Positions 1-63,118 of a DNA stretch of 64,000 nt are shown one piece after another; position 1 is the stretch's first letter; the number at the start of each line of letters is the position of its first letter. The position numbers and the translations under genes were made by a program. The notes beneath the pieces were generated by a model, which did not search any database, was not told the DNA's origin, and saw only the letters and a program-made list of their open reading frames with translations. Origin of the DNA: Rhodothermales bacterium (GTDB taxonomy: Bacteria > Bacteroidota > Rhodothermia > Rhodothermales > Bin80); NCBI GenBank assembly GCA_965218495.1, contig OZ244626.1:1353280-1417279 (forward strand), written 5' to 3'.

Positions 1-1014
1 GCGAATCATTCGACAGTCGGTCGTAAGCACAGGCCGCTTAAGGTACATGTAGTGAAACAGCTTGTGCGGCAAAGAGGCTTCGGTATGCGCGCTCTTAACT
101 GTGGGTAAAGTGCATACATCGCTTCCAAGGATGTAGCTCTTGACTGAATGCTGAGGTTGCCACCCGGTAAAGTCGACACTGTCGCCAATGCCGAGCGAGT
201 TCGCAAGCGACTCCAGTTCTGAGCGGATGCGCCCATCGCCAACGAGGACCAGGCGGGCTCGGCACTGCTGCAACACGATCGGCATGGCACGGATCAGCGT
301 TGCCAAGCCCCGATGGAGGTCGAAAGATCCCGTATACACAATTGTAAAGTCGGATCGTACAGATTCTATTATGGTCGCATCCACATCGTACCTGTCGAAT
401 TCGCCGATGGCAATGGTGTTGGGCGTGACGACAGTCCTGCGTGGATCGACGCCGAGCTTGATTACGCGGTCCTTTTGTGCTTCGTTCACACAAATGACCT
501 TGGTGACTGCACGAGTCCACTGTGCTTCCAAGTACCGCCAGCGCGAAATGTTGACAACGTACTTGGCTGGAAACCTCGTGCTCCAGGCATACTGGGTTAG
601 CGCATCCACGTAGTTCTCGTGCAGATCACCGACTACCGGAATTCCAAGCCGCCGCGCCGCTCGCAAGCCGCCTCCAAATAGCCAGAGGTCGTGCATGTGC
701 AATGCGTCAACCCGACTTCGTTTGCACACGCGCCGGATCTGGTGGCTTACAAACAGTGACAGCGCCGGTATCGAGGCAGCCAAGCCGCGCAGCTTGTTCC
801 GCACTTGTTTGGGAGTGCTGACACGGACAACCGTCATCCCATTGTGCGACATGACACCACTGCTCCCCCCTGCCTTCCCTTCTGGGTACGGAGCAATGGA
901 AAGCACTGTCACCTTGAAGCCTGCCGAGAGCAGCGAGCGCACTTCATTCTCGACCCGCACGTCCGGCGGAAAGCGCTCGTCAAGCACCATGAGGATGTGG
1001 AACTTGTCTCGCAT
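1..1014 (-). CDS. Glycosyltransferase family 4 (GT-B fold), N-terminal ~338 codons; 3' end lies beyond the window start
   Basis: Absent from the ORF track because it runs off the window edge. My own minus-strand translation from the ATG at 1014 reads MRDKFHILMVLDERFPPDVRVENEVRSL...VVGDLHENYVDAL...FTIVYTGSFDLHRGLATL...RLVLVGDGRIRSELE..., a GT4-like motif pattern. Confidence 0.7.
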   Translation of the reverse strand, partial: MRDKFHILMVLDERFPPDVRVENEVRSLLSAGFKVTVLSIAPYPEGKAGGSSGVMSHNGMTVVRVSTPKQVRNKLRGLAASIPALSLFVSHQIRRVCKRSRVDALHMHDLWLFGGGLRAARRLGIPVVGDLHENYVDALTQYAWSTRFPAKYVVNISRWRYLEAQWTRAVTKVICVNEAQKDRVIKLGVDPRRTVVTPNTIAIGEFDRYDVDATIIESVRSDFTIVYTGSFDLHRGLATLIRAMPIVLQQCRARLVLVGDGRIRSELESLANSLGIGDSVDFTGWQPQHSVKSYILGSDVCTLPTVKSAHTEASLPHKLFHYMYLKRPVLTTDCRMIR

Positions 1015-1297
1015 CTCTAAAATCCTCTGACCAGTCTGATTCTCTGCGAAGTTGCAGCTCCTGTGCCCCGCAAATCGCAGAGCGCAGGAGCACTGCCCAA
1101 TCTACCTACGTGCTGCGACCGGAAATGAATTCGCGCGGCTTGGATTCCCTAAGCGCTGATCCCAGGATGGCCCACGCGGCGTTCAGATCACGATCGGGCA
1201 CCTGGTCTTACGCTTCGAAAGTACTCGTGCGCATCGAAACCGTGACCCGCTCGCCGTGCATTGCGCCGCTGCGAACATGCAATCTCTCCACGGTCTT

Positions 1298-2605
1298 TCA
1301 AGTCGGAGTGTCCTCAGCTATTTCGCCTATGATTTCGGCCAGTCGGCGCGTGAGTGCACGCCGATCGTATGCTCCCAGCGCCTGATCATTCGCCGGAGTA
1401 AAGGGCTTGCCTTCCCGGCAGCGCCGACGATGCTCCGAAATGAATTCATGCATGCCCTGGGCATCGTCGTAGTCAAACACGATGCCAGCGCGGGTTTCCC
1501 GCAAGATCCTGGCCATGTCACCGTCCGGCGGTCCAATACCAATTACCGGTTTACCCACGGATAGGTATTCGAAAAGCTTGCCGCTGACAATACCCTTGTT
1601 CAGGCGTCCACGCTCTATCGGCAGCAGTAGCATGTCCGCTTGCGCCATGTACACCATGGCTTCCCGATGAGGCACGTGGGAAATCAACACAAGCGATTCG
1701 CCCATTCCAGTCCGGCCAAACTCACCCGCCACCCACTCATGCACGTGTCCCACCAGGCGCAATTCGACCTCCTCGGCAATACTCCCGATGACCTGAGCGA
1801 ACGCTGCCGAATGACGCTCTTTGGAATACGTCCCAACGTGTGCGATCACAAAACGCGCACTGTCCTTCGTTGGCTCAAGACTGGAAGGTGTGTCATGCGG
1901 GTCGTATCCATTTGGCACAGTTTCGTACCTGCGCATGCACACTTTCCCACGCAAGCCTGTGCCAATTGCCTCGCTTACAGACAGGACTACATCCGCGCGA
2001 GAGAGGACACGCCGCTCAAGTCTGGCGTTGATAAAGCGCGCTAGTGGCGACTGATGAAAGTGCGCATTGTAGTAGTAGTCGGTCCAAGGATCACGTAGGT
2101 CTGCTATCCATGGGATCCCAGTTCGGGCCTTCAGGAAGCTCCCAACAAGATGCGCGGAATGCGGTGGACCTGATGTCATCACGACCGAAAACTGCTGCTC
2201 ACGCACCAGGCGTTGCGCAGTTCTCCTAGCAAATGGAACCCAACCCACGCGAGCATCAGGGAGGAAAATGTTTCCGCGAATCCATCGGGCGGCCTCCTGC
2301 TTCCAGCTTATGCGGCCCTCTTTGACAAAACCAACGCCGGCAACATCCTCCTTCGATACCCCTTGCAAGCGTGCATATATCGAAAAAGGATCCCACGACC
2401 GCGTTCGAACCACACGTACCTCACCAGGGAGCTGGTCCACAAGCGCTGAATCCATCGCTCCGTACACCGCAAAGCGGGGATCCACGGTGACAACTGTAGG
2501 CAAGTATCCACACTGGGGCAGATAGCGCGCAAACTTCAGCATTCGCTGAACAGCAACCCCACCGGCCGGCGGAAAATAGTACGTGATCAGCAGCACAGGC
2601 CTCAT
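1298..2605 (-). CDS. Glycosyltransferase family 4/GT1
   Basis: 460-aa track ORF. The likely true start is the internal MRPVLLITYYFPPAGGVAVQR (ATG at 2605). The PPAGG N-terminal motif and the C-terminal ...GKLFEYLSVGKPVIG... segment are typical of GT-B enzymes. Confidence 0.75.
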   Translation of the reverse strand: MRPVLLITYYFPPAGGVAVQRMLKFARYLPQCGYLPTVVTVDPRFAVYGAMDSALVDQLPGEVRVVRTRSWDPFSIYARLQGVSKEDVAGVGFVKEGRISWKQEAARWIRGNIFLPDARVGWVPFARRTAQRLVREQQFSVVMTSGPPHSAHLVGSFLKARTGIPWIADLRDPWTDYYYNAHFHQSPLARFINARLERRVLSRADVVLSVSEAIGTGLRGKVCMRRYETVPNGYDPHDTPSSLEPTKDSARFVIAHVGTYSKERHSAAFAQVIGSIAEEVELRLVGHVHEWVAGEFGRTGMGESLVLISHVPHREAMVYMAQADMLLLPIERGRLNKGIVSGKLFEYLSVGKPVIGIGPPDGDMARILRETRAGIVFDYDDAQGMHEFISEHRRRCREGKPFTPANDQALGAYDRRALTRRLAEIIGEIAEDTPT

Positions 2606-2648: not shown

Positions 2649-5120
2649 CTAGCGGCGCTTGTGCCATGCCTTAGCACCAAGACCGATTATCGACAAGTAG
2701 ACCAGTAGTGTCGACACAATACTGATCCAGTTACCGACCGTGTAGCTTTTCGGATCATATCGCAGCACCACCTGATGCGTGCCGACAGGCACACCCACGG
2801 CGCGGAGCAAGTAATTCGCACGGTGAATGGGTGTGCTTTCGCCGCCAATGGTGGCGCGCCAGCCAGCAGGATAGTACACTTCGCTGATGAGGAGCAGGCG
2901 CGGCCTGTCGGTTTGAACCGTGAAGGCTATCTCCCGCGGTCCGTACCGATCCATCGTGACGCTGGCGACACTACTGGAGTCGATTGGCTCGATGGCGCTT
3001 GTCAGCGATGAGTGAAGGATGGCCGACACATGCGGGTCGAAGGAGGGGTCCTGCAAGCGGGCCCATGTCTCGCCGGGATCGCTGATCACCTCGACCTCAC
3101 CAATGAGCAGCGCACGCGGGAGCGGATCGGGATTTTCCAGTACCGAGAACTGGCTGCCGCGAAACACCGGCTGCGTGCCAGGGATGCTTCCCTGGGCAAT
3201 AACGTACCGGGCGTTCATCATGTCCAGTGCGTTTTCGTTGGGGTAGCCTGTCCCGGAGTCAAAAAGGATGTGTTCCAGGAAATCCTGATACAAGCGCAGC
3301 TTGGCGCCACTGTACCCCCCCAGGGATTCGTGGTGATAGGACGGACGGGCGTTTGTAGTCTGGTCGGCAGCCTCCAGCGACAGCACTCGAAAATGGCCGA
3401 CCCCTCCCGCTTCGGCTTTCCTCTGGAGAATGTACTGGTCGGCATCAATCGTCTGCACGCGCGTTGCCGGGTCGCGTCGCCCGCTAAGGTGATCCTCGTT
3501 GAAGTATCGCCGTGCGACGCCTCCCAGGTCAATGGCTACAAGTGCAATTAGGAACAGCTGCAAGAGCCAGCCGGGCATTGTGCGACGCCGGTACAGCACC
3601 AGGCCACCTGTTGCCAGGAGAAGAAACAGAAGCGTACGCACGGCATCGCGCGCAAAGGCATCCTCGCGCGGGCCTACCAGCCGTGTCTCAAGCCACTGGT
3701 TGGTTGCCTGCACCACTTCCGGGTTGTTCAGCGGTCGCTGCGCCTGCTGCGCGATCAAAGCCTGGGCCCGCGCACGTTCTCCCGGGCGCTCAAAGTCAAA
3801 GAATGAACCCTTACCAGCATAGAGCAGCAGCGTAAAGCCCAACACGATGCCGGCAGCTGTGTAGACAGCCTTTGACTTGCTCTTTTCCTCGGCGGACGTG
3901 CCGTCGCTGCGCGTGACGTATCCGAGCCCCAGTGCCGCCAGTACCGCAAGGGTCAGCGCTACGGCAATGAGCCACGTTTCAGGTACCCGAAATGCATCAA
4001 ACAGAGGGAAGTAGTTGAACATGAGCCGGTTCAACAGCTCTAAATGGCTTCCCAGCGCGAAAAGCGTCATCAGCAGCGCGGCAATGCCCAACGCTCTGGC
4101 CATGCGAGTTCGAAGGCGCCAAACGGCCAACATTGAGAGCAGCAGCACTATGCCGCCCACATAGTGCGGTCCGCCGGTAAAGGTCTTGGGCCCCCAATAC
4201 AGCGCGCCGCCGCCAAAGGCGTCCGCTATCAGAAACGTGAGCAGCTCGGCTCGTCCTTGACTCCATGCCATTGCGTAGTCCCAGCCCAGCGCCCCTGCTC
4301 CGCCCCCACTTGCCATGCCACGTATGGTGTAGGCCTTGTATTCATACATAGGCCAGTACGTCTGCGTCACCATCAAGACGCCTATGGCGACACCTGCGAG
4401 CAGCCACAGTGTTGAGCGAGCAAACTGCTTAGTGGTAGCGCTCCTGACGGCCCCCACCAATTCGGCAATCCACCAAACAAGGCCTATCATGCCGACGTAG
4501 TACGAGATCTGGATATGGCCTGCGCGCATGCTGACGGCTACTGCGACGGCAAAAAGGAGGCTTGCCAGAACGCTTGGGCGGCGCAACGTGTGCACAAACG
4601 CCAACAGCAGCCACGGAGCGTACGCCAGTGCGATGTATTTTGAGTTGTGCCCTGCTACGAGTATGATCGGCAAGTACGTTGTAAGGCTGTACGCACACGC
4701 TGCAAACAATCCCAGCAGTTTGTCCTTGGTCAGATACCAAACCAGTGCGTAGGCCCCGAGCAGCAAGACGAGCACATGGGACAAGGGCCAGGTCAGCAAA
4801 CGCAGCCAAGCAAACAGGCGGTCCACCTGAAAGACATTTCCATGGGGCGAGATGACCAGCCCCGGCATTCCGCTGAAGACGTTGGTAGCCCACAAAGGCT
4901 CTTCGCCGGTCTCCTGGCGATGCTCGAGCATGGACTCCGCCGCGGCGCGCCACTGCACCGTATCGCTCCCCACGAGATACCGACCGGAAAAGAGCGTCGG
5001 CCAGCAGAAGTACAACGCAATGACGGCCAGCGCGGCTAGGCACACCAGGTGCTGTCGCGACTGCGAAAGCGTGCTCCACCAGGACGACTTCGGCGCCGAA
5101 CGCGCCTTTCTTCTCGCCAT
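2649..5120 (-). CDS. Large polytopic membrane protein, YfhO-like (putative envelope glycosylation protein)
   Basis: 823-aa ORF with many hydrophobic segments in the N-terminal two thirds and a soluble C-terminal domain. It sits between glycosyltransferase genes. The family assignment is by resemblance only. Confidence 0.5.
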   Translation of the reverse strand: MARRKARSAPKSSWWSTLSQSRQHLVCLAALAVIALYFCWPTLFSGRYLVGSDTVQWRAAAESMLEHRQETGEEPLWATNVFSGMPGLVISPHGNVFQVDRLFAWLRLLTWPLSHVLVLLLGAYALVWYLTKDKLLGLFAACAYSLTTYLPIILVAGHNSKYIALAYAPWLLLAFVHTLRRPSVLASLLFAVAVAVSMRAGHIQISYYVGMIGLVWWIAELVGAVRSATTKQFARSTLWLLAGVAIGVLMVTQTYWPMYEYKAYTIRGMASGGGAGALGWDYAMAWSQGRAELLTFLIADAFGGGALYWGPKTFTGGPHYVGGIVLLLSMLAVWRLRTRMARALGIAALLMTLFALGSHLELLNRLMFNYFPLFDAFRVPETWLIAVALTLAVLAALGLGYVTRSDGTSAEEKSKSKAVYTAAGIVLGFTLLLYAGKGSFFDFERPGERARAQALIAQQAQRPLNNPEVVQATNQWLETRLVGPREDAFARDAVRTLLFLLLATGGLVLYRRRTMPGWLLQLFLIALVAIDLGGVARRYFNEDHLSGRRDPATRVQTIDADQYILQRKAEAGGVGHFRVLSLEAADQTTNARPSYHHESLGGYSGAKLRLYQDFLEHILFDSGTGYPNENALDMMNARYVIAQGSIPGTQPVFRGSQFSVLENPDPLPRALLIGEVEVISDPGETWARLQDPSFDPHVSAILHSSLTSAIEPIDSSSVASVTMDRYGPREIAFTVQTDRPRLLLISEVYYPAGWRATIGGESTPIHRANYLLRAVGVPVGTHQVVLRYDPKSYTVGNWISIVSTLLVYLSIIGLGAKAWHKRR

Positions 5121-5983: not shown

Positions 5984-7345
5984 CTAGAGCTTTCGCAGTC
6001 GCTCCAGCACTGGCCGCACCGCGCCCTCAATGGCCTCTCTTCGCACATGGCGCCCGCCACGCACGACATGGCGGCCAGCAGACCAGACGTTCTTGATCAA
6101 TTGCTCGCCCCCTGCGAATATCCACGCGTCCAGGATCGTGTCCCCGCTCAGGCCTCGCAACTGCGCTCTGTTGCCGTCAAGTTCCAGAAGGTCCGCCCAG
6201 GAATCTGGCTCAATGCTTCCGCCGGTACGGCCGGCAGCCAAGGCACCGCCCGAACAAGCCCCGTCAAACAATGCGCGCCCGGTTGATGAATAGCGAATTG
6301 CAAGCGCAGCGCGAGTGCGATGATGAAGACGCTGCGAGTATTCCAGTGTCCGCAGCTCCTCCACAAGCGAAATCCTCACGTTGGAATCAGAACCTATACC
6401 AAACCGGCCACCCGCGCTCAGAAAGCGAACGCCATCAAATATCCCGTCACCCAGATTACTTTCGGTAATAGGGCACAGACCAACAACCGCACCGGTTCGG
6501 GCAAGGGCAAGCGTTTCAAGAGCGTCCATCTGCGTACAGTGAACGAGACACCAGCGCCTGTCCACCTCAAAGTTGTCTAACACCCAGGTGACGGGACGCG
6601 CACTCAAGGCCGATTCGACCTCACTTACCTCGGCCCGCTGCTCCGCCAGGTGCATGTGAAACGGAAGATCCGGTCTCAGCTTTTCGGCCCACGCCATTGA
6701 TTCTGGGCTGACGGCTCGCAGGGAATGGACCGCAACACCTATCACCGTGTCGCCAGGCAGTTGCTTAATCTCCGCTTCAGTGGCGTCCAGAAGCGCACCA
6801 TACTGGTCACGTGTGCAGCCGAACCGGTCCTGGCCAGTCGCCAAGGCGGCACCATTGCATCCGCCGCGCTGATACAGGACTGGCAAGATGGTGAGCCCGA
6901 TACCAGTGCGAGCGGCAGCTGATGCTATTCGCGAAGACATTTCCGCCAGGTTGTCGTAGGGCACGCCTCCCCTGCCATGGTGCAGATAGTGAAATTCCGC
7001 CACACTTGAAAAGCCTGCCTCCAGCATTTCAATTTGGGCAAGGGCTGCGACCGCTTCGAGGTCCTGGGGCGTGAGGCGGTCCAAGAAGCTGTACATGAGT
7101 CGGCGCCAGCTCCAGAAGTCGTTGTGAGCTGACTTTCCTTGCGACTCTGACAGCCCGGCCATTGCCCTCTGGAATGCATGGCTGTGAAGGTTTGTGGGGG
7201 CCGGCAACAAGATGGAACATCGTTCGCCTTCCCAAGGCTGATCAGCCAGTACATTGGTGATTCTGCCGGACGCATCGATCTCTACCGAAACCGCGCTCCT
7301 CCAGCCCTGCGGCGTAAGTGCCGTTTTGGCCCAAAGCTTGGTCAT
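5984..7345 (-). CDS. hutF: Formimidoylglutamate deiminase (amidohydrolase superfamily)
   Basis: Carries the ...LLPAPTNLHSHAFQRAMAGLSE... motif typical of HutF, with amidohydrolase His/Asp motifs further on. The probable start is MTKLWAKTALTPQGW at 7345. It neighbours hutIHU. Confidence 0.8.
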   Translation of the reverse strand: MTKLWAKTALTPQGWRSAVSVEIDASGRITNVLADQPWEGERCSILLPAPTNLHSHAFQRAMAGLSESQGKSAHNDFWSWRRLMYSFLDRLTPQDLEAVAALAQIEMLEAGFSSVAEFHYLHHGRGGVPYDNLAEMSSRIASAAARTGIGLTILPVLYQRGGCNGAALATGQDRFGCTRDQYGALLDATEAEIKQLPGDTVIGVAVHSLRAVSPESMAWAEKLRPDLPFHMHLAEQRAEVSEVESALSARPVTWVLDNFEVDRRWCLVHCTQMDALETLALARTGAVVGLCPITESNLGDGIFDGVRFLSAGGRFGIGSDSNVRISLVEELRTLEYSQRLHHRTRAALAIRYSSTGRALFDGACSGGALAAGRTGGSIEPDSWADLLELDGNRAQLRGLSGDTILDAWIFAGGEQLIKNVWSAGRHVVRGGRHVRREAIEGAVRPVLERLRKL

Positions 7346-58543: not shown

Positions 58544-58828
58544 TCAGCCAGGCGGTCTACGTTGCCATCGCAAGGGAAAACCGATGCCAACTAGAATCGA
58601 CAACGCACGGCTCCCTCCCTTGCTGTCAATCCTTAACCCACGCTGGTAGAGCGGTGTTAGTCCATAGTTGTACAGGACGTCTAGTGACAGTGACCAAGAA
58701 CGTGACGTTGCTATGTTTATGCCGGCACCTCCTATTATCCCTAAGTCCGTTACCCGTAGCACTCGGACAAGCATGTCGGGACAGTCTATAGAACGCGACT
58801 CGGCGGCTCGTTTCTGCGTGTACTTGGC
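58544..58828 (-). CDS. Beta-barrel OMP, exon 2 (C-terminal strands)
   Basis: ...VTDLGIIGGAGINIATSRSWSLSLDVLYNYGLTPLYQ...SRALSILVGIGFPL... aligns with the C-terminus of the paralogue at 15807-16448. It is in frame with exon 1 once the intron is removed. The boundary could be 58834 if the 3' splice site is 6 nt upstream. Confidence 0.7.
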   Translation of the reverse strand, partial: AKYTQKRAAESRSIDCPDMLVRVLRVTDLGIIGGAGINIATSRSWSLSLDVLYNYGLTPLYQRGLRIDSKGGSRALSILVGIGFPLRWQRRPPG

Positions 58829-59102
58829 ATCGCGGTAGCCCCCGGATTTCCCGGGGGCCCCGCACAGATCCGGACGTGCGCGTTAACGCATCCGGCTCCT
58901 CCCTTGGGTCGCGCCGTCGCGCATGACGTTAGCAGGTCGGCAAACCGACCCGCAGCCGTAACCGATCCGTCCCCTGTGACACGCAGTATCCGACGCTGTG
59001 TCCGGTACGTGTGAAACTTCACGATTTCCCCTTGGGTGCGACGCTTCGCTCCACTGACTCCGCCACGAGGGCACCCCCGCTTTGTTCGCCGGCTTCATAG
59101 CT

Positions 59103-60648
59103 GTCGGGTCGGAGGAGGCGCCCCGTAGGGCTAACCTCCGTCCGCCGCTCAAACGGCCCGTACGGTTTTCACACCGGTAGCCCCCGGGTTTCCCCAGGGG
59201 CCCCGGACAGATCCGGACGTGCGCGCTAACGCATCCGGCTCCTCCCTTGGGTCGCGCTGTCGCGCATGACGTTAGCAAGTCGGCAAGCCGACCCGCAGCC
59301 GTAACCGATCCACCCCATGGGGCACGCAAAATCCGGCTCAGCGTCCGGTACGTGCAGGGCTTCGCGGTTTCCCCTTGGGTGCGACGCTTTGCTCCACTAG
59401 CTCCGCCACGTGGGCACCCACGCTTTGTTCGCCGGCTTCATAGCTCTTATCATCGCATCTGACTTCTCCCTGCCGTGCATCCTCCGCTCGGCTTTCGCCT
59501 TGACTTTGGCGGCCCCGCCCGAAGCGCTGGGCAGCAAGGAGACCTCTCAGGTCCCGACACAGTACGTACGTGCGTCCCTGGGTTCTCGGACACCGCGGGA
59601 CTCCGCTCCTCCTCACCATAGCGGTGGAGCAGATGTTGCCTTCGACCATACGGAAAGTCTCGGCATCCCGGACAATAGCTTTTTCGGTGCTCATTAGCCC
59701 TGGCCACACGTGCCGCTACCGACGCTTCGCTGTCACCCTCACGAGGGACAACGCACGGCTCGCGGAGACATGCAGTTGGTTAAACTTTCATGACACGGGA
59801 CTTTCACCCGCTGTACTGCGTCAGTTAGCCTGACGCACCCGTAAGCCGCTTTCACAAAGGTGTCTCGTGGAGGGTTCAAGGAAGGTTTCAGTGGAATCAA
59901 TCGTACATGGCCGTACTCCACTGTGGTGTAGACCTTCCTCTCCCCTGTTGGATTGTGCCCAATGCGACAGTTTCCTCAGCCGATGATGTACGGGTCTTTC
60001 ACTAAAGGAACTGTTCCACCTCATCGACTTTACTCGCTGATCGCAATCTCTCCATTCCAAACCACCTTTGCCGACTGCCTTCCCCGACCCACCCGGCCGC
60101 CACTTGCGCGGTCACCCGACTTTCGACGGGCTTGTGGTACTATGCAGCCGTCCGACGACTCGCCACGCATCCGTTCCCACTTCCCCTTACGGGTTATAGG
60201 GGCTGTTATCCCGGTGCCACCCGGGAACGTGACGAGCCCTCCTGGGGTCACACACAGATCTTCCGTACCGTGCCGTTCGCACACACCTTGGTTCGACGGG
60301 TGGATAAGAACGCCTTCGCCGAAATACAGCCGGCTCGACCTTGCCCCGTCTTTGGCCGACCGATTCGTCCGTGGGGTCGCCCCCTTGACTACGGCCCGGT
60401 ACTGCTCCTCAAGCCCTTCAGATTCCACCTCGCGGTGGACACCCTGCCCTCCGGTTGTCTCGCGACAATGTCCCGACTTAGCGCCTGTCTTGGCTGTTTC
60501 CGTCGTTTCCAACTCGGTGCCCGTTTAGACCTTTGCTTATCGGTACATCCCGGCCGACGAGGCATTACCCCCGTCTTTGGATATGGCACCCCCTATCCGG
60601 GCGCCAGTGGGATTTGAACCCACCTGATCTGGGCGCTGCCCAGCACAC
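59103..60648 (-). mobile_element. Group II intron C (middle; ORF-less; 878 nt of its own sequence), nested in intron B
   Basis: The 5' end reads GTGTGCTGGGCAGCGCCCAGATCAGGTGGGTTCAAATCCCAC. It contains ..GGTGGAATCTGAAGG... The internal UGUAU (60324-60328) is complementary to the flanking ..AUACA. The 3' end is ..CCUCCGACCCGAC, with an unpaired A 7 nt from the end. Its removal makes B exactly colinear with A. Confidence 0.75.
59171..59838 (-). mobile_element. Group II intron A (innermost; ORF-less; 668 nt), nested in domain V of intron C
   Basis: The 5' end reads GTGCGTCAGGCTAACTGACGC...AGCGGGTGAAAGTCCCGTG. Domain V lies at 59210-59241. It is homologous to B along its full length, with compensatory changes. 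The internal CCGUA (59649-59653) is complementary to the flanking ..UACGG. Confidence 0.8.
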
Positions 60649-61042
60649 TGTATCGTCGCATCTGACTTCTCTCCACCGTACGTCCTCCGATCAGCATTTA
60701 GCCTACGCTTTGGCGACCTTCCCCAAAGGGATAGGTAGTGGAGAGACCTCCCAGGTCCCGACAGGATACTTGCGTGCGTCCATGGGGTCTCGGACACCGT
60801 GGGCCTGTCCGCCCTCTCACCATAGCGAGGACGAACATGTTGCCTTCGGCATAGAGGAAAACCTCGGCGACCCAGATAATGTCTCTTTCGGTGCTCAATG
60901 TCCCTGGCCACACGTACCGCTACCGACGCTTCGCGCCCACCCTCACGGATGACCACGCACGGCTCGCGGAGATATGTACCTGGTTTAAGCTTCATAACAC
61001 GGGACTTTCACCCGCTATATCCTGCCAGTTAGCCTGGCGCAC

Positions 61043-61519
61043 CCTCTCGGTGACTCCGCAGTTGACTCTAAAGGAGAGTGCCGGACCGATAGTGACATGA
61101 GGCGATAGCTTACCCTTCACGTCACGGCTTAGCGTAAGTAGCAGGGGTAATTCGACATAGTCGAATTCTTGTACAACCTTGATTTCGGAAAAGGGATAAC
61201 CGGAAAGACCCAAATCTGGAAAAACCTGTCGAAAAACCTGGCCCCTTTGCGCATAAGCTGCGCCGAATTGCAATCCAATATTGGGCGCAAGGTGCATGAT
61301 AGCCGATACCCCAACTTTGTACCCAGTTCGATTGCCAACGCCAATCTCTGGCACGCCCTCTGGCAGGCTGGAAGGATTCCATTCGAGGGTCGAGTGTGTG
61401 GTGCCAGCATGAACCAAAACGGTCAACTGCCCTTGCGCACTGTTTGGCAAAGGTAGGCCGACAAACACAAGCAGGAGAAGCAGACGAAGCTTGCGGGCAA
61501 ACCTTGGTGCACTATGCAT
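61043..61519 (-). CDS. Beta-barrel OMP, exon 1 (signal peptide + N-terminal strands)
   Basis: MHSAPRFARKLRLLLLLVFVGLPLPNSAQGQLTVLVHAG...YVELPLLLTLS...VTIGPALSFRVNCGVTER|. The 310-aa track ORF (60992-61924) is an artefact: it extends upstream into the TnpB 3' region and downstream 16 codons into the intron. Confidence 0.7.
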
Positions 61520-61652: not shown

Positions 61653-62888
61653 TTACCAAGAACAGTTGAGCACCCTATGCGATTCTGCGCCGTGAGGAAG
61701 CATCGGCATAGGCCCTGCAGCATCCTTGTCCAAAGGCTTTCCGTGGGCGGTTGGCTCCGGTTCCGCGCGACACGCAGGCAACAGTCGCTGCCAGCCCAAG
61801 ACCGCAAGACCCTTTGCACGAATGCTCTTAGCCGCATTGGCATCCCGGTCCTCGGCATGACGGCAGCATGCGCAGCGATAGGTGCGCACCGACAAGACGA
61901 TAGATTCTGCAGGACGTGCGCCACACAGCCTGCACGTCTGCGTCGTGTGACGTGGCGATACTTTCACGAGCTTGCCTCCAGCGCTCTCAGCCTTGTAGGC
62001 AAGCTGCGTACTGATTTGCCCCAGCGACTGTGCCAGCATCGCGCGGTTCAGACCACGCTTCCTGGAGCCACCACGGGCCGTCAGGTCCTCGAGCTTCAGG
62101 TCCTGTAGCACGAGAATACCATCATGGTCCCTAATAATCGCCGTGGTTATGCGGTTTGTGGCGCTAGTGCGTTTCACCGCAATTCGTCGGCCCTCGCGTG
62201 TCAGCGCTTGTTTCTTTTTGCGCCGCGCATTGCTGCGACGTTTCGCGCGCGACAAGCGCTTCCGCGCACGCTTGTGCTTTGCGTCATCAATCTAGTGGCG
62301 CATACTGCGCGCCGTCAGACAGCGTGCATGCAGCCTTCACGCCAAGGTCTATGCCGATGGGACTGCGCAGATCCGGTTGCAGCGCGGCATCTGTAGTTCC
62401 ATGACGAGTTGTACTTCACAGCCCGTGCCGAGCGGAGTCTGCGCGAGGCATACCTGTCGGGCAGCGCCGCCAGCTGCCAGCGCTCCGCGCACGTCTTTGA
62501 GGCGCAGCTTTCCCACGCCTTTGACTTGGATTGTTCAGTACTGTCCGTTGCGCTTTGGCTTCGTCGCGCCCGATTCGCAGGAGCGAACGCGCCCAAAGCG
62601 CGGCAGCCCCTTGCGATCGAGAATGAACTTCTGGCAGCCCAGCTGCACGCGTTTAAGCGCGCTACGTTGAAACGCTACGCCTCATCGCGTATTGCATCTG
62701 TCAAGGCTGCGCAGCTCCGCCATTCACTTGTACAGGTCGAAGGCGGAGGGCGTAGTTCTATCGGCCGCATATTGATCGCGGCACCGCTGCACGGCTCTAT
62801 TGCGCAGCCATGTCATATGGCGAAACATTGCTTCCAGCCGGTGGCGTTGTGGCTTTCGGATGCGCGCCAAGCGATATGCATAAGGTAT
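61653..62888 (-). pseudogene. tnpB: TnpB (IS200/IS605-family OrfB) relic with stops and frameshifts
   Basis: The C-terminal 200 codons are intact: ...GILVLQDLKLEDLTARGG....GLNRAMLAQSLGQISTQLAYKAESAGGKLVKVSPRHTTQTCRLCG...RTYRCACCRHAEDRDANAAKSI (RuvC + Zn finger). Upstream, my own translation gives IPYAYRLARIRKPQRHRLEAMFRHMTWLRNRAVQ..., interrupted by at least 4 stops or frame changes. Confidence 0.75.
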
Positions 62889-63118
62889 TGTAATTCAATA
62901 CGTTAGCTTGCGCGGCACTAAGGCGTTCTGCTCAGTTTCCAACTGTCATATATAATTCCTATTTCAAACTCCCTTGACGCGCGCTTTTCGAAGTCTGCGG
63001 CTCCAGCTTAGCACACAACATCGCCGGTTTGTCCAATGGGCGCTCGGGCGAGCGTTAGGGCCAGGCGGACTTGGCCTTCGTAGCCATGAAGATATACGCG
63101 GGTGACGCGTGCAGCGAG

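Follow-up and report, generated by a model that had tools for sequence, protein, structure and literature searches.

A nest of three group II introns without open reading frames in an outer membrane protein gene of a Rhodothermales bacterium

The window analyzed here, a stretch of 64,000 nucleotides (nt) from a Rhodothermales bacterium (NCBI GenBank assembly GCA_965218495.1, contig OZ244626.1, positions 1,353,280 to 1,417,279 of the forward strand), carries on its minus strand an outer membrane protein (OMP) gene interrupted by a nest of three group II introns, none of which contains an open reading frame (ORF). The outermost intron, B, harbors intron C, which in turn harbors intron A (B > C > A). 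In the direction of the gene, host exon 1 (61519..61043) encodes residues 1-159 with a signal-peptide-like N-terminus and ends with GAGAGG. It is followed by the 5' segment of B (61042..60649, 394 nt), which begins with GUGCG and comprises domain I, domain II and the start of domain III, and by the 5' segment of C (60648..59839), which runs from GUGUG to the 5' half of domain V and ends with AAGCGGCUUACGG. The complete intron A follows (59838..59171, 668 nt; domain V at 59241..59210, domain VI at 59206..59171). The 3' segment of C (59170..59103) resumes with the 3' half of domain V, GAAAACCGUACGGGCCGUUU, continues into domain VI with a bulged A seventh from the end, and ends with CCCGAC, giving C a length of 878 nt. 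The 3' segment of B (59102..58829, 274 nt; total for B 668 nt) contains the rest of domain III, an ORF-less domain IV, domain V (58898..58867) and domain VI (58863..58829) and ends with GAU. Host exon 2 (58828..58544) starts with GCCAAG and encodes residues 160-253 and the stop codon. Thus, C sits in an internal loop of domain III of B, at columns 398/399 of our family alignment A1, and in domain V of C, A sits at the transition from the upper helix to the loop. The original prediction on this locus covered 59171-61042, an interval that includes A completely, C for the most part and B with its 5' segment only, so that the 274 nt at the 3' end of B fall outside.

Rfam searches gave full-length matches to RF02005 (group-II-D1D4-6) in A (59804..59581, 173 bits) and in B (61008..60785, 164 bits), and a weak match to RF02001 in C (60439..60252, 23.9 bits). 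Permissive matches to RF00029 (D5-D6) stopped exactly at 59171 for A (32.6 bits) and at 58829 for B (38.1 bits), both scores being just below the gathering threshold of 40 bits. A repeat search found 58839-59102 directly repeated at 59182-59445 with 88% identity. The 3' part of B was therefore located beyond A, and together with the RF00029 ends this established the order B > C > A. The 5' ends (GUGCG in A and B, GUGUG in C) conform to the GUGYG start seen in all relatives; the 3' ends are AU in B, AC in C and GU in A, and a bulged domain VI A is present in all three introns.

When the exons 61519..61043 and 58828..58544 were joined, they gave a protein of 253 amino acids in frame, with all 253 codons open. 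The spliced product matched PF13568 (OMP_b-brl_2, E = 2.5e-14), an outer membrane beta-barrel, and aligned through the junction with an uninterrupted homolog of 216 residues (P0002). The metagenome contig L001 carries an intron-less ortholog, about 80% identical, to which the spliced exons align without a gap at the B junction (CACCGAGAGG^GCCAAG in the window versus CAGCGAGATCACCAAG in L001; here and below ^ marks a junction or insertion point). The exon around the insertion point of B is well conserved in L001. At the insertion point itself, three of four exon nt differ (GAGAGG^G versus GAGATC A) between the flanks of B (61038..61047 and 58824..58828 (-)) and L001 (~6370..6380), and the site in L001 would pair with neither EBS1 nor EBS3 (exon-binding sites 1 and 3) of B.

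All six splice junctions were backed by intron-free sites, independently of any pairing between exon-binding and intron-binding sites (EBS/IBS), and the splice sites called in the original prediction for A, B and C stood. For B, the empty site is the intron-less ortholog in L001, the predicted ligated junction being CACCGAGAGG^GCCAAGUACAC (GAGAGG^GCCAAG). For C, A and six more relatives of B serve as the empty site, aligning through columns 398/399 without a gap; the predicted junction after removal of C is GACGAUACA^AGCUAUGAAG (GAUACA^AGCUAU). For A, the metagenome was scanned with the rejoined domain V of C as the pattern, and the 19 loci retrieved (L122-L140), i.e. loci chosen for an intact domain V, are relatives of C with an unbroken AGCGGC[U/C]UACGG^GAAAACCGUACGGGCCGUU, exactly the joined flanks of A. 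In these loci the uninterrupted sequence reads AGCGGC[U/C]UACGGGAAAACCGUACGGGCCGUU, which places the site of A between UUACGG and GAAAAC and agrees with the junction predicted after its removal, GCGGCUUACGG^GAAAACCGUAC (UUACGG^GAAAAC). Without A, the 3' region of C folds as a canonical domain V followed by domain VI (z = -4.5). The rejoined domain V has 33 nt, with AGC opposite GUU, a 2-nt bulge, a 5-bp upper helix and a GAAAA loop. A 3' end of A one nt further upstream, which would give C a textbook domain V of 34 nt with a GAAA loop, was excluded by the 19 relatives with the 33-nt GAAAA form, and also because the EBS3 C of A pairs with G, not U, at exon position +1. The locus therefore qualifies as a twintron at each step: B without C aligns gap-free with seven relatives, and C without A regains the intact domain V of 19 relatives.

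Once the nested insert is removed, B has the same length as A, as originally predicted, and the two align end to end with 82% identity (81.6%) over 674 alignment columns, 12 of them with gaps. The equal length is a coincidence of indels, since family members span 647-694 nt. Relatives were found by BLAST against loci from a genome scan with a domain V pattern in its G·A form (see below), of which more than 120 were listed. Among these loci at least six carry full-length ORF-less relatives (647-694 nt), five in Rhodothermales metagenome-assembled genomes (MAGs; L043, L009, L058, L020, L028) and one in a Vicinamibacterales MAG (L121). ORF-containing relatives in Roseovarius (L085) and Azospirillum (L052) encode a reverse transcriptase and maturase; no endonuclease domain was detected in their proteins. 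Viral contigs scanned with a domain I pattern and a domain V pattern gave no match, and no literature mapping of the Rfam D1-D4 families onto the bacterial classes A-F, CL and ML was found.

The alignment of A, B and the six ORF-less relatives yielded a six-domain consensus of 190 base pairs, 85-86 of which show compensatory double changes. Standard pairs occupy 96% of cells, compared with 83% in column shuffles (0 of 500 reached the observed value) and 35-41% when partners were slid by 1-3 columns; sliding also reduced the number of double-change pairs from 86 to 14-20. Several compensatory substitutions between A and B had been predicted, and the count on the 190-pair consensus bears this out: 138 pairs do not differ, 20 were maintained through changes on both sides and 23 through a change on one side, and nine are broken in one copy. 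The number of non-standard cells is six to seven per copy in A and B and 6-18 in the relatives. The basal helix of domain VI is indeed CCGG/CCGG in A and GCGG/CCGC in B (columns 664/698, CG versus GC). The letters GUCAG..CUGAC of A and GCCAG..CUGGC of B, taken earlier for the arms of a first hairpin, are present as described, but the assignment is probably wrong because long-range basal helices of domain I exclude it. Column 6, the variable position of the supposed hairpin, pairs with column 296 at the end of domain I (Watson-Crick in 8 of 8 copies), and columns 15-27 pair with columns 278-289 (eight covarying pairs), the 3' arm of the supposed hairpin pairing with 285-289. A local hairpin of columns 5-9 with 15-19 is compatible with the sequence; it is mutually exclusive with the helices 6-10/292-296 and 15-27/278-289, which covary more.

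In A and B, domain V has 32 nt, with the AGC triad, the bulge and a G·A in place of the usual G·U. That the G of the triad faces an A had been noted as an oddity of these two introns; the observation is correct, but the feature is invariant in all eight family members, and the pattern requiring it was found at more than 120 genome loci in many phyla. These G·A domain V loci (CGGAUC; L002-L121, at least 120) belong to Proteobacteria, Firmicutes, Acidobacteriota, Myxococcota, Planctomycetota, Cyanobacteria and others.

Guide and target positions were identified by exhaustive comparison of exon positions with alignment columns in the eight copies. EBS1 (columns 190-194) pairs with exon positions -1 to -5 in all eight copies at eight different sites, and six distinct EBS1 sequences occur (CCGUA, CCUCU, CUCGA, CACAU, CCUGA and GAGCU). 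EBS3 (column 255) pairs with exon position +1, likewise in 8 of 8 (C-G in four copies, G-C in two, A-U in two), while the position 5' of EBS1 is U in every copy, without covariation. The γ-γ' interaction between the last intron nt and a nt in J2/3 covaries as well (A-U in seven copies, G-C in one). In their EBS3 pairing A and B (EBS3 C at 59588 and 60792, respectively) follow the manner of subgroup IIB and are IIB-like. No column pairs consistently with exon positions -6 to -12, so that EBS2 at a fixed register was rejected; in a flexible search, the internal loop at columns 158-172 gave 6-bp EBS2 pairings in three relatives (L058, L028 and L121).

Within the window, the three predicted EBS1/IBS1 matches were each confirmed with five Watson-Crick pairs: CCGUA (59653..59649) with UACGG (59843..59839) for A, CCUCU (60857..60853) with AGAGG at the end of exon 1 (61047..61043) for B, and UGUAU (60328..60324) with AUACA (60653..60649) for C. 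At a fixed register, five pairs would arise by chance with a probability of no more than about 0.007 in each case, and the joint chance of all three is below 1e-6. A direct repeat of 264-300 nt between A and B is also what a segmental duplication or recombination at the DNA level could have left behind, with the EBS1/IBS1 matches arising by coincidence. We consider this extremely unlikely. The flanks of A and B are unrelated, each copy begins and ends precisely at the ribozyme boundaries, exact empty sites are found at other loci, and EBS1, EBS3 and γ-γ' pair in 8 of 8 members at eight sites. Exact GUGCG...AY boundaries together with matching guides are not what a DNA-level duplication is expected to produce. 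The data hence support the view of the original prediction that retargeted retromobility, and not accidental duplication, accounts for the two copies.

Whether A and B diverged within this genome is a separate matter. A is 92.5% identical to L043, which comes from a different Rhodothermales genome, and only 81.6% identical to B, while B is roughly as far from A as from L043. The split between A and B therefore predates these insertions and need not have occurred in this genome. L043 also shares its EBS1, CCGUA, with A and occupies an unrelated site with UACGG at its end. A and B may accordingly belong to separate branches of a single intron family that had diverged beforehand and reached this genome independently, either through horizontal transfer or through ancient vertical descent combined with loss, without any duplication in this genome; we give this slightly less than an even chance, and it would be compatible with retromobility.

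Two further members of the family deserve description. In L121 (OZ244228.1, 1011..2204 (-)), an ORF-less intron of RF02005 type (1963..1310) lies within domain I of its own paralogue (2204..1977 and 1310..1011). EBS1 of the inner intron, GAGCU(C), pairs with GGGCUC of the outer copy, making this a self-invaded twintron, and an RF01999 match is found in addition at 210..93. The intron in L009 (OZ244148.1, 1716..2386 (+)) interrupts a frame of at least 510 codons that is open through the spliced junction and looks by eye like that of a transposase.

The metagenome relatives of C (L123-L140) are 73-92% identical to it and start with GUGUGC. They usually carry an insert of about 1.2 kb in domain IV, which in L138 encodes a reverse transcriptase-maturase of 443 residues. 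EBS1-IBS1 pairing was observed in every C-family member compared (13 of 13). The 5' flank was read for 12 metagenome copies; EBS1 is ACUAU in all of them, and the 5' exon ends with [A/G]UAGU in 11 and with GUGGU in L125. Compared with this family pattern, UGUAU of C in the window facing AUACA of B amounts to two mutually compensating double changes. The flanks of the C relatives are group II introns themselves, from at least three Rfam D1-D4 families. The host family was assigned by a D1 model match upstream, 80-140 nt off where measured, as RF02005 for L131, L138 and L128 and weakly for L123 and L136, as RF02001 for L129 and L139, and as RF01999 for L133. Examples of such nested C relatives are L138 7117..5093 (-), L131 2343..319 (-) and L129 1113..3148 (+). 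A recurrent landing site of C-type introns is thus the J2/3-domain III region of other group II introns, where the conserved GAAGUC[A/G]G...[A/G]UAGU^AG is the proposed target of the family.

In the window the relationship is reciprocal: B, of RF02005 type, hosts C, and C hosts A, again of RF02005 type, in its catalytic domain V. It appears to us an evenly balanced question whether the C lineage has specialized as an 'intron of introns', with reciprocal hosting among B, C and A and a three-step inside-out splicing cascade gating the OMP gene. No second A-type insertion in a C-type domain V was found among the fetched loci, which says little as the metagenome loci were pre-selected for an intact domain V. 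The closest C relative among the metagenome loci, L125 (2637..6525 (+), 92%), has a domain IV insert of about 3 kb with an RF02003 domain I match (4384..4519), which suggests yet another nested intron. Near the 5' end of C, a hairpin resembling a tRNA T-arm, GGUGGGUUCAAAUCCCACUGGCGCC, is found at 60599..60625 (-) and is conserved at the 5' end of the C relatives; ARAGORN called no tRNA there.

Altogether, we consider it highly probable that B is a IIB-like ribozyme of RF02005 type residing in the OMP gene, that C, from a different family, was inserted into domain III of B, that A, a diverged relative of B, was inserted into the domain V loop of C, and that all of them arrived by retromobility. 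Each intron would have entered by reverse splicing and reverse transcription, through retrohoming or ectopic retrotransposition, at a site chosen by pairing of the EBS1 loop with the target and, for A and B, also by the EBS3 nt. Such EBS-guided choice of sites would explain why A and B are homologous from end to end and differ exactly in EBS1. The match between EBS1 and exon may reflect a change before insertion, i.e. retargeting, and fits compensation in place afterwards equally well. A, B and C would all have lost the reverse transcriptase/maturase gene that relatives have in domain IV. Expression of the host gene would then require splicing from the inside out: A would have to leave first, restoring domain V of C, then C, restoring domain III of B, and finally B, joining the exons in frame.

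Several observations weigh against this reading. No reverse transcriptase-like ORF was found in the 64-kb window, and A, B and C are all without an ORF, so that mobility, and probably splicing too, would need a protein supplied in trans from elsewhere in the genome; the three introns appear to be ORF-less derivatives that depend on such a protein, probably also for splicing. EBS2-IBS2 pairing amounts to only 4 bp in A, and none of at least 4 bp was found in B, as would suit an ectopic insertion in which EBS1 and EBS3 were the main guides. The 3' terminus of A reads CCGGUGU, its last three nt lying at 59171..59173 (-), whereas B and the six relatives end with GAU or GAC. The UGU end breaks the conserved penultimate A and one pair of domain VI (U·G at its base), and A may therefore be impaired, possibly at the second splicing step. 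Since L043, 92.5% identical to A, retains GAU, this change is recent. Finally, the ortholog in L001 has an in-frame TAG, and transposase remnants adjoin the host gene, so the nest may be a fossil in a dispensable gene.

According to that alternative, the introns were mobile in the past, at least one of them, most likely A, no longer splices, the OMP gene is a pseudogene and the EBS/IBS matches are historical. The UGU end of A where the family has GAU, the lack of an intron-encoded protein in the window, the stop codon in L001, the abundance of transposase remnants in the neighborhood and RF00029 scores under the gathering threshold would all suit an inactive nest. On the other hand, the spliced frame is open across 253 codons, 183-184 of the 190 consensus pairs are kept in A and B, and 43 of the 52 pairs that differ between the two remain paired. 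Moreover, EBS1 of C and IBS1 of B both leave the family consensus and compensate each other, which is most easily explained by selection for pairing. We therefore regard inactivity as the less probable state, although as a possibility to be taken seriously.

The biology of these introns is known, and it is the arrangement that is rarely seen: the nest is three levels deep with all ORFs lost, catalytic domains serve as insertion sites, the host gene is coding, and the host belongs to the Rhodothermales. According to reviews, ORF-less group II introns and twintrons are rare in bacteria and mostly lie outside genes (PMC4424553). In Thermosynechococcus elongatus, the related IIB introns F1-F6 diverged by EBS1, EBS2 and EBS3 sequences matching different sites, ORF-less copies arose from ORF-containing ones and are served in trans, and some introns have come to use a conserved position within another group II intron as their insertion site (Mohr, Ghanem and Lambowitz 2010, PMC2882425). 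The locus described here resembles this system in its EBS-diverged families, ORF-less copies and intron-in-intron homing. It differs in that the former are CL/IIB1 introns of a cyanobacterium, whereas A and B are of RF02005 type in Rhodothermales, in that the present nest is three deep and built from two unrelated ribozyme families, and in the targets, which lie between the start codons of a domain IV ORF in T. elongatus and in the ribozyme core (internal loop of domain III, loop of domain V) in our case. In Methanosarcina acetivorans, repeated site-specific homing into group II introns has produced multi-level nests with ORF-less members (Dai and Zimmerly 2003, as related in PMC4424553). According to that account, the archaeal nests reach up to five levels, their insertions go into intron ORFs, and no coding exons surround them, in contrast to the protein-coding gene here, whose frame splicing is predicted to restore, and to ribozyme domains as targets.

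A bacterial intron-in-intron inside a protein-coding gene is also known from Tery_4732 of Trichodesmium erythraeum, a twintron whose inner intron must splice first and for which, as stated in 2015, there was no second bacterial example within a protein-coding gene (Pfreundt and Hess 2015, PMC4649490). This twintron is two introns deep, each of the two carries a protein-coding frame, the inner intron is placed in domain I, and experiments demonstrated that splicing proceeds sequentially (PMC4649490). The nest described here has three levels, all of them ORF-less, and its ordered splicing is a prediction. In Euglena gracilis chloroplast twintrons described by Copertino and Hallick, e.g. in psbF, the inner intron reportedly lies in domain V of the outer intron. 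There too, it is said, the catalytic domain of the outer intron is split and an ordered splicing enforced; those introns are reportedly organellar and degenerate, and the kinship is one of arrangement, not of sequence.

To these examples the locus adds a fully ORF-less nest of three levels in a coding gene of a different lineage, the Rhodothermales. It also adds a family of at least eight ORF-less ribozymes of about 650-690 nt that forms a clean natural table of EBS1/EBS3 retargeting, and a second family that repeatedly lands in the ribozyme core of other introns. A nest that still splices would offer a natural system for ordered ribozyme folding and trans-acting maturases; one that no longer does would be a record of intron accumulation in safe havens. 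Either outcome leaves the understanding of how group II introns work unchanged.

Domain III of A and B contains AUGAAGCCGGCGAACAAAGCG (59428..59440 and 59085..59097 (-), respectively), which reads M-K-P-A-N-K-A. A similar peptide, MKPTNKAG or MKSANKAG, opens the long reverse transcriptase frame in ORF-containing relatives (L052 5815.., L138 ~5080), and its AUG is a candidate start codon. The insertion point of C-type introns is 4 nt upstream of the AUG of this MKPANKA-like peptide.

In the region just upstream of the host gene (61653..62255 (-) and 62255..62900) lies a remnant of an IS605-type TnpB, and frames further upstream are broken. The TnpB homolog in L001 matched PF07282 (Cas12f1-like_TNB) and is juxtaposed with the host gene in the same way.

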